The notes below the pieces were generated by a model. The model was given only the letters and a program-made list of their open reading frames with translations, did not search any database and was not told the DNA's origin. Below are positions 21,408 to 45,203 of a stretch of 64,000 bases of DNA, piece by piece (within the stretch, counting starts at the first letter, position 1; each line of letters begins with the position of its first letter). The stretch is taken from the NCBI GenBank assembly GCA_947384775.1, contig CANDIF010000005.1, positions 2,036 to 66,035 on the forward strand, read 5' to 3'. The position numbers and the translations under genes were made by a program. The stretch is from an uncultured Clostridium sp. GTDB taxonomy: Bacteria > Bacillota > Clostridia > TANB77 > CAG-508.

Positions 21408-21488
21408 GCTCCACGTGGAAGTTAACTTTTTAAAAACCGAATTTAAGAGGATTTTTAAAAAGTTTAACTTCCAGCAAGATGGAGCGGA
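21408..21488 (+). repeat. hairpin repeat family copy 1 (GCTCCACGTGGA...TCCAGCAAGATGGAGCGGA)
   Basis: conserved imperfectly complementary ends, covarying inner stem AAGTTAAC/GTTAACTT, A/T-rich loop. Confidence 0.6.
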
Positions 21489-21590
21489 TGTAATAATTTT
21501 TCGCATAAATTAAGAGGAAATTATTGCTATTATGTAAAGAATATGATAATATTATAACTATTAGATTTTAAGAAAGAGGAGTGCGTATGT

Positions 21591-24500
21591 ATGAAAAAAG
21601 TAGAACCAAATTTTAATTTTATCGACATGGAACACAAAATAATGAACTTCTGGGAAGAAGAAAAGTGTTTCCAAGAACTATTAGAAAAAAACAAGGATGG
21701 TAAAAAATTTAAATTTTTAGATGGACCTATTACAGCAAACAATCCAATGGGAATTCACCATGCTTGGGGAAGAACAATAAAAGATATATACATACGTTAC
21801 AAAGGAATGAATGGATATACTTCACATTATAGAAATGGATTTGATGGTCAAGGACTTTGGATAGAAGTTGAAGTAGAAAAAGAATTAGGATTTAAAGACA
21901 AAAAAGATATAGAAAAATATGGATTAGATAAATTCACTAAAAAATGCTTAGAAAGAGTTGATCGTTTTTCAAAAACAATAACAGATCAATCAAAAAGATT
22001 AGGACAATGGATGGACTGGGATAACTCATATTACACAAATACAGAGGAAAATATAACAGCAATCTGGCACTTTTTAAAGAAATGCCATGAAAAAGGAATG
22101 ATAGAGCAATCATTTAGACCAATGCCATGGTGTCCAAGATGTGGTACTTCATTATCAGAACACGAGATGGCAGGATCATATAAACAAATGGTACATAAAG
22201 CAGTATATTTTAAATTACCATTAGTTGGAACAGATAGCAAAATAGTAGTATGGACAACAACACCATGGACATTATCATCAAATGTTGCTTTAGCAGTAAA
22301 CCCAGAAATAGACTATGTTAAAGTAAAAGTAAAATCAGATGAAAAATATTTAATCATGGGAAGAAATGCTCTAAACATGGTTGGAGACGATAAAATAGAA
22401 GTAGTAGATAGCTTTAAAGGAGACAAATTAGTAGGCTTAGAATATGAAACATGTTTCCCAGAAATGGAAAAACAAAAAGACATAGACCACAAAATAGTTG
22501 CATGGGAAGATGTATCTAGTGAAGATGGAACCGGAGTAGTTCATATTGCTCCAGGCTGTGGTGCAGAAGACTACGAATTGGGAAAGAGAGAAAACTTAGC
22601 AGTAGTAATTCCAATAGATGATGAAGGTGTTATAGTAGATGGATTTGGATTTATGACAGGACATAACACTAAAGAAGTCGCAGAATTAGTATTTGAAGAA
22701 TTGAAAAAAAGAGATAAATTATACATGATAGAAGAACACGAACATAGCTATCCAGTATGCTGGAGATGTAAGAGTGAAGTAGTGTTTAAAGCAGTTAGAG
22801 AATGGCAAATCAATAGTGAAAAAATAAGACCACAATTAATAGAAGCAGCAAAAACAGTAAAATGGACACCAGACTTTGCAGGAAAAAGAATGGAAGACTG
22901 GTTAAGAAATATGGGAAATTGGGCAATTTCAAGAAAGAGATTTTATGGATTACCACTTCCAATATATCCTTGCGATGAATGTGGCGAAGTAACAGTAGTT
23001 GGTTCAAGAGAAGAATTAAAGAAATTAGCAGTAGAACCAAACAAAGTAGATGAATTACCAGATTTACATAGACCATGGATAGATGATATAGAAATAGTAT
23101 GTCCACATTGTGGAAAACATGTAAAGAGAATAAAAGAAGTTGGAGACTGTTGGCTAGATGCAGGAATAGTAGCATTCTCAACATTAAAATATTTCACAGA
23201 CAAAGAATATTGGAAACAATATTTCCCAGCTGAATGGGTAACAGAAATGAAAGAACAGATAAGATTATGGTTCTACTCATTACTATTCATGTCAGTTGTA
23301 TTAGAAGAAAGAGCACCATATGAATCAGTATTAACATATAATGCTGTTATAAAAGAAGATGGAAGTAAATTCTCTAAATCAGGATATATGATTAAATTTG
23401 ACGAAGCGGCAGAAAAAATAGGAGCAGATCCAATAAGATATCTATATGCAAGTGCACAATTAAACAATGATGTAAGATTTGGATTTAACCTAGGAGACGA
23501 ATCAAGAAGAAAATTATTAAACTTCTGGAATATATATGTATTCTTTAATACATATGCAATATTAGATATGCCAAACTTAAAAGATTATAAGTTAGATATG
23601 TCTAAGTTAGAAAAATCAGATAAATGGTTGCTTGCAAGATTAAACACATTCTTAAAAGTAGCAAAAGAAAAAATGGATAACTACCAAGCACCAGACTTAG
23701 TAAAAGAATTCGAAATATTAGTTGATGACATATCAAACTTCTATGTAAGAGTAAATAGAAAGAGATTCTGGAAAATTGGAGAAGACGAAGACAAATTACA
23801 AGTATATTATTTACTATACACAGCAATCAAGAAAATGACACAAGTAATAGCACCAATAATACCATTTATGACAGAAGAAATTTGGCAAAATATGGTTAGA
23901 AGTTTTGAACCAAATGAAGCAAAATCAGTACATTTGAGTGATTATCCAACTCCAGTAGCAGAATATGAAGATGGAGAAATACTAAAAGAAGTAGAAGAAA
24001 TGAGAAAAGTAATAGGACTTGGATTAATGCTTAGAAATGAAAAACAATTAAAAGTAAGACAGCCATTAAATAAGCTATATATATCAAGCGAAAAAGATAT
24101 AGAAAACTCAATAAACGATTTTGAAAACATCATAAAAGAAGAATTAAACATAAAGAATATCGAATTATTAAAAGACGAAGCAGTATTAAATGATGAATAT
24201 TTAATGGTAAACTTCAAAGTAGCAGGAAGACTATTAAAAGAAAAAATCCAAAGTTTCAAAGAAAAAATAGAAAAATTAAGTGACGCAGAAATACAAGAAT
24301 TAGTTGCAAAATTCAATGATGAAAGTGTTACAGAAATAGAAATAGACGGATTTGGCACATTTGAAAAAGATGTATTCATAAAAGATATGAAGCCAAAAGC
24401 ACATATAGTTGTTATAAAAGAAGGAGACTATACAATAGCACTAGATACAATCTTAACAGAGAACTTAATAGTAGAAGGAATGTATAGAGACTTAGTAAGA

Positions 24501-24731
24501 ACATTACAAGTATTAAGAAAAGATGCAGGATTAAAAGTAGAACAAAGAATAAACTTATCAGTACAAACAACAGGAAAATTAATGGAAAAAGTTCTAGCAA
24601 ACTATGTGGATAAAATAACAGCAGATACATTAACAGAAAACTTCTCAAGAGAAGCAATAGCAAATCCAGTAGTTGAAAAAGAAATTGAAATAAACGGAGA
24701 AAAAATAACAGTACAAATAGCGGAAGTTTAA
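21591..24731 (+). CDS. ileS: isoleucine--tRNA ligase
   Basis: 1046 aa, class I HIGH-like (PMGIHHAWG) and KMSKS (KFSKS) motifs, zinc-binding C-terminus. Confidence 0.95.
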   Translation: MKKVEPNFNFIDMEHKIMNFWEEEKCFQELLEKNKDGKKFKFLDGPITANNPMGIHHAWGRTIKDIYIRYKGMNGYTSHYRNGFDGQGLWIEVEVEKELGFKDKKDIEKYGLDKFTKKCLERVDRFSKTITDQSKRLGQWMDWDNSYYTNTEENITAIWHFLKKCHEKGMIEQSFRPMPWCPRCGTSLSEHEMAGSYKQMVHKAVYFKLPLVGTDSKIVVWTTTPWTLSSNVALAVNPEIDYVKVKVKSDEKYLIMGRNALNMVGDDKIEVVDSFKGDKLVGLEYETCFPEMEKQKDIDHKIVAWEDVSSEDGTGVVHIAPGCGAEDYELGKRENLAVVIPIDDEGVIVDGFGFMTGHNTKEVAELVFEELKKRDKLYMIEEHEHSYPVCWRCKSEVVFKAVREWQINSEKIRPQLIEAAKTVKWTPDFAGKRMEDWLRNMGNWAISRKRFYGLPLPIYPCDECGEVTVVGSREELKKLAVEPNKVDELPDLHRPWIDDIEIVCPHCGKHVKRIKEVGDCWLDAGIVAFSTLKYFTDKEYWKQYFPAEWVTEMKEQIRLWFYSLLFMSVVLEERAPYESVLTYNAVIKEDGSKFSKSGYMIKFDEAAEKIGADPIRYLYASAQLNNDVRFGFNLGDESRRKLLNFWNIYVFFNTYAILDMPNLKDYKLDMSKLEKSDKWLLARLNTFLKVAKEKMDNYQAPDLVKEFEILVDDISNFYVRVNRKRFWKIGEDEDKLQVYYLLYTAIKKMTQVIAPIIPFMTEEIWQNMVRSFEPNEAKSVHLSDYPTPVAEYEDGEILKEVEEMRKVIGLGLMLRNEKQLKVRQPLNKLYISSEKDIENSINDFENIIKEELNIKNIELLKDEAVLNDEYLMVNFKVAGRLLKEKIQSFKEKIEKLSDAEIQELVAKFNDESVTEIEIDGFGTFEKDVFIKDMKPKAHIVVIKEGDYTIALDTILTENLIVEGMYRDLVRTLQVLRKDAGLKVEQRINLSVQTTGKLMEKVLANYVDKITADTLTENFSREAIANPVVEKEIEINGEKITVQIAEV

Positions 24732-24742
24732 AATTATTTAAG

Positions 24743-24773
24743 AAGATACCTAAAACCAAGGTATCTTCTTTTC
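24743..24773 (+). terminator. rho-independent terminator after ileS
   Basis: AGATACC...GGTATCT hairpin then TCTTTTC. Confidence 0.5.
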
Positions 24774-43894: not shown

Positions 43895-44557
43895 AAATAG
43901 ACATACTTACACTTTTTCCAGAAATGTTTGAACCTATGAAACAAAGCATTATAGGTAAAGCAATTGAAAAAAATATTATAGATATTAATTTAATAAATAT
44001 AAGAAATTTTTCAAAAGATAAACATAAAAAAGTAGATGATACTCCATATGGTGGAGGAGCAGGAATGGTAATTAGACCAGATGTTGTATATGATGCATAT
44101 AAAAGTGCAGCAACAGAAAAATCTAAAACCATATATTTAACTCCACAAGGAAAAACATTAAATCAGGAGAAAGTAAAGGAATTAAGCCAAGAAAAACATT
44201 TAATATTATTATGTGGTCATTATGAAGGAATAGATCAAAGAGTTATAGATGAAATCAAACCAGAAGAAATATCAATAGGAGACTATGTATTAACAGGAGG
44301 AGAAATACCAGCAATGGTAATAATAGACTCAGTTTCAAGATATGTTGAGGGAGTATTGAATGCAGATTCTATCAAAGAAGAATCTTTTACAAATAATCTA
44401 TTAGAATATCCACAATATACAAGACCAGAAATATTCTTAAATAGAAAGGTTCCAGAAGTGTTAACTTCACGGAAACCATAAAAAAATTAATGACTGGAGA
44501 ACAAAACAGTCAATAGAAATAACAAAAAATAAAAGACCAGATTTAAAAAATAAATAA
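43891..44557 (+). CDS. trmD: tRNA (guanine37-N1)-methyltransferase TrmD; in-frame CGG at 44470-44472, frame continues +1
   Basis: 0-frame ends LTSRKP* but +1 after CGG gives conserved TrmD C-terminus [26 protein letters not shown]. Confidence 0.75.
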
Positions 44558-44576
44558 AAGGAAGGGAGGATATCGA

Positions 44577-45098
44577 ATGGATATCATAAAATCAATAGAA
44601 CGTGAACAAATGAAAAACAAAATACCAGATTTAAAAGTTGGAAATACAGTTAAAGTTCATGTTAGAGTAAAAGAAGGAAACAGAGAAAGAATTCAAATAT
44701 TTGAAGGAATCATAATTAAAGTTCAAGGTGGAGGAATAAATAAAACATTTACAGTAAGAAGAATAGCATCAGGAGTAGGTGTTGAAAAAACATTCTTAAT
44801 TCACTCACCAGCAGTAGAGAAAGTAGAAGTAACAAGAGTAGGTAAAGCAAGAAGAGCAAAATTATTCTATTTAAGAGACAGATTAGGAAAATCTGCTAAG
44901 ACAAAAGAAAAGATAGGAGCAAGAATTGAAACAACAGAAATAACAGTTAAAGAAGAGGAAGTAGTTTCAGAAGAACCTGCTAAAGACGATAGTGCAGTAG
45001 CTCCAGAAGAAGCACCAGCAGTAGAAACAGAAACTCCAGTTGTAGAAGAAAAAATAGATACTGTAACAGAAGAACCTACAACAGAAGTAAAAGAATAA
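44577..45098 (+). CDS. rplS: 50S ribosomal protein L19 with acidic C-terminal extension
   Basis: conserved L19 core (~115 aa) plus ~55-aa Glu/Thr/Val-rich tail. Confidence 0.9.
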
Positions 45099-45121
45099 TA
45101 CATTCATAAAGTACAAAGTTG

Positions 45122-45203
45122 GCTCCATATTGCAGGATATTCCATTTTAAAATATAAATACAGCTCTGTTTTAAACTTTAAAAATTAATATCCTTGTGGA
45201 GCT
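45122..45203 (-). repeat. hairpin repeat family copy 5 (degenerate)
   Basis: GGCTCCATATTGCAGGA ... CTTGTGGAGC with A/T-rich loop. Confidence 0.4.

Follow-up and report, generated by a model that had tools for sequence, protein, structure and literature searches.

REPINs are hairpins of ~89 bp that consist of two inverted REPs (repetitive extragenic palindromes), are thought to be mobilized by RAYTs (tyrosine transposases associated with REPs), and vary in presence between strains (PMC3337134). In REP dimers, the loops may differ in length, and the dimers may be embedded in palindromes (PMC3733652). REPIN/REP–RAYT systems have been described mainly in Proteobacteria and Cyanobacteria (PMC3337134, PMC3733652, PMC5581495); Firmicutes and Clostridia are not mentioned in PMC3733652, and only RAYT groups 2 and 3 have been tied to REPINs, group 1 also occurring in Clostridia (PMC5581495). 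Here, we analyzed a stretch of 64,000 nt from an uncultured Clostridium sp. (GenBank assembly GCA_947384775.1, contig CANDIF010000005.1, positions 2036–66,035; hereafter called the window), which carries a family of intergenic hairpin repeats. These repeats probably belong to one family of mobile DNA elements, non-autonomous and about 103 to 147 bp in size, the core of which is a long imperfect hairpin.

A sequence-only reading of the window had listed five copies of an ~80-nt repeat, in both orientations and always intergenic. All five were found where it had placed them, in both orientations, but two ~120-nt copies of a sister subfamily had been missed, and the ~80-nt feature proved to be the hairpin core of a larger inserting unit (about 103–147 nt). 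Copies were collected from the window and from assemblies of related low-GC gut Clostridia, the loci of which are labeled with L-numbers (e.g., L059), and a covariance model built from 17 main-subfamily copies (R1) was applied to the window and to the related loci. The plus orientation is defined as TAGCTCCACGTGGA ... TCCAGCAAGATGGAGCGGA. The 64 kb contain seven copies, five of the main subfamily (c1–c5) and two of the sister subfamily (s1 and s2):

s1: unit 21262–21388, core 21266–21384, minus strand; sister subfamily, ~120 nt; repeat pairs I1/I3; R1 score 48 bits.
c1: unit about 21399–21501, core (TAG..GGA) 21406–21488, plus strand; fold −32 kcal/mol, z −7.3; R1 score 91 bits.
c2: unit 24779–24897 (ends approximate), core 24803–24888, minus strand; R1 score 85.6 bits.
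c3: unit 27040–27165, core 27059–27144, plus strand; z −10.4; R1 score 103.9 bits.
c4: unit 34896–35042 (147 nt), core 34920–35004, minus strand; R1 score 98.7 bits.
c5: 45119–45204, minus strand; degenerate copy; R1 score 66.7 bits.
s2: 55896–56013, plus strand; sister subfamily, 87 to 89% identical to s1; repeat pairs; R1 score 45.5 bits.

The conserved ends pointed out in the sequence-only reading occur far above chance. The left motif, GCTCCACGTGGA, allowing up to two mismatches, gave 10 matches in the window where 0.5 were expected; eight of these fall on the five elements listed earlier, several sites matching on both strands, and the remaining two represent a single palindromic site (49176–49189) outside the family. 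For the 19-nt right motif, TCCAGCAAGATGGAGCGGA, there were four exact matches versus 0 expected. Each of the copies adopts a long hairpin fold, with z-scores relative to dinucleotide shuffles of −4 to −10 (to −11.6 on the opposite strand), and R1 detected copies with E-values of 1e-12 to 1e-21, matching the sister copies end to end at 45 to 48 bits. At 28.5% G+C, A/T palindromes are common in this genome, and chance A/T-rich palindromes or ordinary look-alike terminators might be invoked; given the four exact 19-mer matches, these E-values, and the presence of identical motifs in other species, the probability of this explanation is negligible. One weak R1 match (63013–63086) was rejected as an ordinary terminator-like hairpin that lacks the family motifs.

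Further copies, with complementary stems, exist beyond the window. A scan with the 19-mer of one genome per species gave 13 true matches, all in low-GC (26–30%) metagenome-assembled genomes (MAGs) labeled Clostridia or Clostridium sp., and eight chance matches in high-GC genomes. Applying R1 to these 13 loci revealed additional copies, up to three per 8 kb, and the copies in other genomes have flanks unrelated to those in the window. One genome may contain several distinct subfamilies, and these turn up again in other species. Scanning metagenomes yielded true matches in one sample only, the rest being a chance match within an Adlercreutzia-like gene. There were no matches to the exact 19-mer in viral contigs, no blastn matches of c3 to a plasmid collection or of s1 to a phage collection, and only unrelated papers in a full-text literature search for the motifs. 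Likewise, Rfam gave nothing at gathering thresholds and weak matches only to plant microRNA precursors (24–32 bits against cut-offs of 74–102).

The copies follow a common plan, in which TAG is succeeded by an outer helix of 6 bp, an asymmetric loop where CG faces either GCAAGA or ACGAGA, a stem that is long and variable, and CGGA. In the main subfamily, the core of which is ~85 nt, the outer helix GCTCCA/TGGAGC is followed by the asymmetric internal loop with CG opposite GCAAGA, then by the tetramers TGGA/TCCA, and then by about 25 to 30 more base pairs and a terminal loop of 4 to 10 nt, giving a whole stem of about 30 to 35 bp. The sister subfamily (core ~120 nt) shows the same plan with the outer helix changed on both sides; s1 reads TAGC-CAAA-CG-CAGGAG..CTCCG-ACGAGA-TTTG-GCGGA, and in s2, CAG replaces TAG. 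Among 33 tabulated copies, 31 carry TAG and 30 have the GGA tail; the loop reads CG on the 5' side in 27 and GCAAGA or ACGAGA on the 3' side in 25 and 5, respectively. In the five flanking bases, G and A are most common directly 5' of TAG, C being less frequent and T rare. The outer helix comes in four complementary versions (GCTCCA/TGGAGC, GCCAAA/TTTGGC, GCCCAA/TTGGGC, and GTTCCA/TGGAAC). One subfamily, with GCGACA/TGGAGC, breaks two of the six outer pairs, and in the copy at L063 the base is fully paired but GTAG...CGGATT is kept.

The compensatory variation that the sequence-only reading had seen in the stem is substantial. Over the whole hairpin (17 full copies), 88% of cells pair, compared with 36 to 52% in slid registers, and 14 of the 27 pairs have changed on both sides; none of 500 shuffles equaled the observed values. 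At the hairpin base (31 copies), the corresponding fractions are 90% versus 27 to 44%, with compensatory changes at 8 of 12 pairs. Covariation is also visible between close copies, c1 having GGAAGTTAAC/..GTTTAACTTCC where its near-twin in L008 has GGAGATTAAC/..GTTTAATCTCC, and in the degenerate c5 the hairpin is kept by a flipped pair (T–A to A–T) at the inner-stem base (pair 16–80). Two details of the earlier description needed adjustment. The A/T-rich TTTTAAAA is indeed present but forms part of the stem rather than the loop, and the inner stems are mutually complementary as described, but usually with a 1-nt bulge, so that AAGTTAAC pairs with GTTTAACTT. The bulge lies on the same (3') arm, at varying depth, in about 21 of 31 copies and in six of eight subfamilies. 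Overall, the fold of the minus strand is slightly better (summed energies of −1034 versus −996 kcal/mol), since on that strand a conserved A/C opposition turns into a G·U pair.

An alternative fold with two small terminal hairpins was rejected, as the sister subfamily cannot form them and the long-hairpin pairing holds. A kink-turn or other named RNA loop motif was discarded by reasoning only, the loop sequences being unfit for the G·A/A·G requirement. At L010 (789–818), we observed a solo remnant, TAGCTCCA|GCAAGATGGAGCGGA, in which the whole stem is gone and a mini-hairpin of 6 bp and 6 nt is left; the stem was apparently lost by deletion between two TCCA direct repeats.

To compare filled and empty sites, orthologous loci in a graded series of relatives were reached through homologues of DnaI and isoleucyl-tRNA synthetase (IleRS). 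The closest relative recovered, represented by L059, L060, and L061, has the same gene order and IleRS sequences that are identical to each other and 96% identical to that of the window (DnaI of L059: 92%). Running R1 on these three loci, of 15 to 23 kb each, gave no match at E ≤ 0.1. When the sites of s1, c1, c2, c3, and c4 were aligned with L059, none of the five held an intact element; four were plainly empty, and the c2 site held a 28-nt fragment only. The spacer lengths are as follows:

HAD–IleRS spacer (s1 and c1): 360 nt in the window, 141 nt in L059.
IleRS–rubrerythrin spacer (c2): 275 nt in the window, 192 nt in L059.
dnaI–dnaB spacer (c3): 157 nt in the window, 34 nt in L059.
murE–aminotransferase spacer (c4): 303 nt in the window, 197 nt in L059.

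The clearest case is c4, where the window has exactly 147 extra nt between GTCAT and TAAAC, within almost identical flanks and without any target duplication of 2 nt or more. The c3 insertion, of ~126 nt, has GTT...AAC ends; s1 and c3 show at most a T-run as duplication. Both s1 and c1 are missing from the orthologous HAD–IleRS spacer, and the unit ends of c1 are good to about 5 nt. In more distant relatives, the dnaB–dnaI spacer is element-free and 4 to 20 nt long in L039, L030, L032, L033, and L062, whereas in L035 (DnaI 85% identical) it is 177 nt long and contains an element of the sister subfamily in the position and orientation of c3. The spacer that holds c5 is equally long in all recovered assemblies of the species. 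L026, a 98.4%-identical strain, was considered as an empty site for c2 and dismissed, because it differs there by a larger rearrangement. The elements are thus mobile, having been gained and lost between very close relatives, and the family is recently active and has spread through the gaps between housekeeping genes.

The fragment at the c2 orthologue of L059 (13160–13190), ATCTCCGACGAGATTTGGAGGCTTTTAA, is a sister-subfamily 3' end. It follows that the L059 lineage also had elements, and the fragment indicates past presence followed by decay or excision. Contigs end inside copies at L039, L044, and L056. Beside the elements, we also noted a gene polymorphism: a DUF6572 gene (25597–25992) lies between dnaI and the rubrerythrin gene in the window and in L039 and is missing at that position in L059, L035, L062, L030, and L032.

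The inserted units, of about 103 to 147 nt, extend 10 to 40 nt past the core on each side, and their termini are far less conserved than the structured subterminal core. Mutually complementary outer arms are clear in a GC-richer subfamily, c4 (arms TATTACATTATAAAG and CTTATAAACAGTAATA), c5, and L008 and weak or absent elsewhere. The termini of the GC-richer subfamily read GTTACTGTTCAA.. and ..TTGAACAGTAAC, and the c4 arms and the GTT..AAC ends of c3 resemble them. Five insertion events are flanked by CTTTT (three times), GTCAT, and ATGCG.

All 30 copies that were checked against open reading frames (ORFs) are intergenic, as had been proposed for the first five. The CGGA side points toward a gene's 3' end in 20 of 29 informative copies, mostly 10 to 35 nt from the stop codon, and where the spacer is convergent (four cases), the nearer end is always CGGA. 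With the CGGA end facing the stop codon, most copies are probably cotranscribed as 3'-untranslated region (UTR) hairpins, which are often flanked by A and T runs. In the window, s1 directly follows the T-run of the HAD gene terminator (hairpin 21235–21258), c1 follows 10 nt further on, and c2 lies 3' of the IleRS terminator and 5' of the rubrerythrin gene; c4 occupies the divergent murE/aminotransferase spacer, and s2 lies downstream of tRNA-Met (56166–56241, minus strand). The elements are not the terminators of these genes, because conventional terminators precede s1 and c2 and c3 sits between dnaB (DnaD-like) and dnaI; a terminator consensus scan of the stretch with c1 to c4 called none of these four copies. 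The degenerate c5 lies 23 nt after the stop codon of the L19 gene and 5' of a conventional terminator. This L19 (44577–45098) comprises 173 aa, with the Pfam domain at residues 2 to 112 and a C-terminal extension of ~60 aa.

Recurrence at unrelated sites, covariation, and absence from a relative's sites agree with the earlier suggestion of a REP/MITE-like element (MITE, miniature inverted-repeat transposable element) that is selected for its hairpin. In the mechanism that we propose, the element would be copied or moved in trans by an enzyme encoded by the host or by an insertion sequence (IS), and this enzyme would read the hairpin base in the folded single strand, so that the long stem would need pairing only, not a particular sequence. 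The fixed unpaired bases would then act as recognition and cleavage determinants. By analogy with REPINs, a RAYT-like HUH/Y1 enzyme is slightly favored over a DDE transposase, neither reaching an even chance. A more far-reaching version, which we regard as unlikely, holds that the fixed unpaired bases (TAG, CGGA, CG/GCAAGA, and the same-side bulge), placed in a hairpin in which all helices covary, form the recognition module of an enzyme that has so far not been connected with elements of this type in Firmicutes. One form would be a system like that of REPINs, but with a new tag and an HUH partner that is divergent or unrecognized; the other would be insertion directed just after stop codons or terminator T-runs, with orientation set by transcription and not by replication.

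Several observations weigh against the proposed single-strand mechanism. The earlier reading had suggested an IS200-like TnpA as partner, for which no confirmation was obtained. A Pfam scan of the 64 kb revealed no transposase and no Y1_Tnp domain, and clustered copies in L001 and L004 have housekeeping genes as their neighbors. Relatives do carry Y1_Tnp genes, one of which, in L062 (IleRS 91% identical), encodes a 238-aa protein with an HUH motif, with homologues in L064 and L066, but all three are bracketed by CGTCCCCAATTGGG repeats and not by TAG..GGA hairpins, and this CGTC-tagged repeat does not occur in the window. The GC-richer subfamily has terminal inverted repeats and direct repeats of 6 to 8 bp that resemble target duplications and point to a DDE enzyme. 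Although GC skew is positive over 1 to 56 kb, which implies a single replication direction, three copies in the window are in plus and four in minus orientation, unlike IS608-type lagging-strand targeting; orientation thus follows the local gene and not the fork. Finally, G·T and A·C mismatches in the variable stem are balanced (8 versus 10), and hence neither the selected strand nor the level of selection, DNA or RNA, can be told from them. A tblastn search of all collected DNA with the L062 Y1 transposase found no other copy, and no parent IS with the same termini was seen in 0.57 Mb of collected DNA (about 0.6 Mb after additions).

The three RAYT-like Y1_Tnp genes, encoding proteins of 230 to 238 aa, lie at:

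L062, 15180–16140.
L064, 5830–6790.
L066, 5810–6770.

Each of them is placed between inverted CGTC-tagged palindromes (CGTCCCCAATTGGG...), a REPtron-like arrangement in gut Clostridia with a distinct repeat family. In L066, two sister-subfamily elements occur 2 and 5 kb from the Y1_Tnp gene, which constitutes co-occurrence rather than linkage.

The strongest competitor, possible if on balance unlikely, is a MITE of the classical type, for which a DDE transposase, perhaps an IS6-family enzyme, would bind double-stranded terminal inverted repeats, the hairpin being a mere by-product of inverted ends. Direct repeats flanking the termini of the GC-richer subfamily (AAATAAAG, 8/8 in L018; AAAATT in L004_1522; 7/8 in L001_4133; 12/13 in L004_7180) speak for it, as do the resemblance of the c4 arms and c3 ends to these termini and the lack of a replication-strand bias, whereas c4, the clean empty site, shows no target duplication. 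A weak likeness to the IS6 inverted repeat ggttctgttgcaaagttttaaatc (PMC2920175) was noted in some TAG-side arms, with z-scores of 2.6 to 5.1 in six arms, but neither the CGGA-side arms nor most of the copies show it, and no parent IS was seen; derivation from the IS6 repeat was rejected because the similarity is weak, one-sided, and confined to few arms. Moreover, the termini are the least conserved part, the most conserved being the subterminal structured motif with its fixed unpaired bases, and double-strand binding leaves the covariation of the ~35-bp interior stem and the same-side bulge unexplained.

An improbable alternative is that the repeats are primarily functional RNA, acting in the 3' UTR as a stabilizer or a site of processing, as a terminator or insulator, or as a small RNA family, with spread being secondary. 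The structure is conserved with covariation, A/T runs often lie beside it, and 20 of 29 copies turn their CGGA end toward the stop codon of the upstream gene, which would give most of them one transcribed orientation; the transcribed strand is the one with the slightly better fold. However, the closest relative has the same genes without intact copies, implying that no copy is needed by its neighbors, and conventional terminators already stand 5' of s1 and c2, while c3, inside the essential dnaB–dnaI pair, cannot be a strong terminator there. In addition, 7 of 22 copies between tandem genes have the opposite orientation, no strand bias is seen among the wobble mismatches of the variable stem, and the Rfam matches are sub-threshold and to generic long hairpins only. 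A stand-alone small RNA, as offered in the sequence-only reading, is no longer needed to explain the data, and any RNA-level effect would be secondary. Far less probable still are attC-like sites of a tyrosine recombinase, recombined as folded single strands like integron-type cassettes. There is a structural analogy (two short paired boxes with an asymmetric spacer between them that is unpaired, one arm with an extrahelical base, and a terminal stem that varies), and two species have different members of the family at the same site, but the RYYYAAC/GTTRRRY core motifs and a cassette array are absent, orientations are mixed between housekeeping genes, and the sole tyrosine recombinase in the window belongs to a tRNA-Arg island, with 11 kb or more between it and any of the five copies first reported. 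Weighing these readings, we prefer a mobile element whose hairpin base would be read in single-stranded form.

The window itself is chromosomal DNA of a spore-forming Firmicute, with genes for IleRS, rubrerythrin, a DnaD/DnaB-like protein, DnaI, secE-nusG-rplKAJL, MurE, Ffh, L19, FtsAZ, SpoIIGA/sigE, and SpoIIR. Identical proteins occur in mouse-gut metagenomes and MAGs, and IleRS homologues at 74 to 76% identity are labeled Oscillospiraceae. The island, at 56544–63800, lies beside tRNA-Arg (56544–56620), where the GC skew changes sign, and encodes the tyrosine integrase (56872–58296, minus strand), a D5_N/DUF5906 primase-helicase, a CHC2 zinc-finger protein, a helix-turn-helix regulator, and a DUF4314 protein. 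Upstream of the HAD gene, the region 16166–20633 contains a gene for a type IV secretion coupling protein (19143–20633) and several ORFs of unknown function; it is conserved at the same place in the sister lineage L059 and resembles the relic of a conjugative element that has become fixed. Between 39400 and 40900, there are three tandem units of ~540 bp (repeat families D15, D18, and D19), each with an apparent small minus-strand ORF (107, 124, and 112 aa) without a Pfam match, preceded by a conserved GCCCTTAAATGGGCGGAGG leader with a hairpin and a ribosome-binding site. The gene for the signal recognition particle GTPase, ffh (41422–42775), is split into two overlapping ORFs (41422–41976 and 41927–42775). 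The identical 282-aa product was called in two independent assemblies of the same species, and the split may reflect a real or a programmed frameshift rather than a sequencing error.

Small hairpin repeats influence the form of bacterial genomes, in that they break assemblies, seed rearrangements, and alter mRNA ends. The copies described here explain contig breaks in metagenome assemblies and can be used as strain markers, and the sister lineage, without intact copies at the same sites, offers a natural before/after comparison of the effects of insertion on neighboring genes. REPIN–RAYT systems serve as a model for transposase domestication and are known almost only from Proteobacteria and Cyanobacteria; the present family, which matched nothing in Rfam, in the phage and plasmid collections, or in the literature, provides a search model toward the enzyme responsible.

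Compared with known systems, the repeats resemble integron attC sites in that function would rest on structure and not on sequence, and differ in having neither attC core motifs, cassette arrays, nor an adjacent intI and in their mixed orientation among housekeeping genes. They share with the IS200/IS605-derived palindrome-associated transposable elements (PATEs) and IS608 (PMC6006769) a subterminal structure with extrahelical bases, variable termini, and, at c4, the lack of inverted repeats and duplication. Unlike in PATEs, which have separate left-end and right-end hairpins, there is one large hairpin, no constant 5' tetra- or pentanucleotide (CTTTT in three of five events), and no replication-strand orientation bias.

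The whole-length palindromic MITEs Correia/NEMIS, ERIC, and RUP have conserved termini and a fixed target duplication, whereas here the termini are variable, a subterminal block is conserved, and the evidence for duplication is mixed. Like these MITEs, the present units are non-coding, ~100 to 150 bp long, and fold end to end; they are intergenic, probably cotranscribed with their neighbors, found in either orientation, and variable between strains (PMC3184786, PMC10969869).

The comparison with REPINs is the closest. The differences are that an RTAG tag is present at one end only, the other end being CGGA, where REPs have GTAG or CGTC at each foot; that the ends of the sister subfamily (CAAA-CG-CAGGAG) are not self-palindromic; that the stems are A/T-rich rather than G/C-rich; that, where REPIN systems have a cognate and usually single-copy RAYT gene between copies of their own repeat, the search found no RAYT with these repeats on its flanks, relatives having RAYT-like genes with CGTC-tagged repeats instead; and that the host belongs to the Clostridia, where REPIN systems are not established. 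The similarities include a near-perfect hairpin of ~85 to 90 nt with conserved short end motifs and a less conserved, complementary middle, as well as a conserved xTAG tag 5' of the helix. The main-subfamily ends are self-palindromic (TCCA-CG-TGGA and TCCA-GCAAGA-TGGA), with unequal loops as in enterobacterial REP heterodimers, and c4, the one clean site, lacks a target duplication. As with REPINs, the repeats are extragenic, show lineage-specific abundance, are present or absent between close relatives, and often lie within flanking palindromic arms. Hence, the repeats are a new family within the REPIN/MITE kind, in uncultured gut Clostridia.

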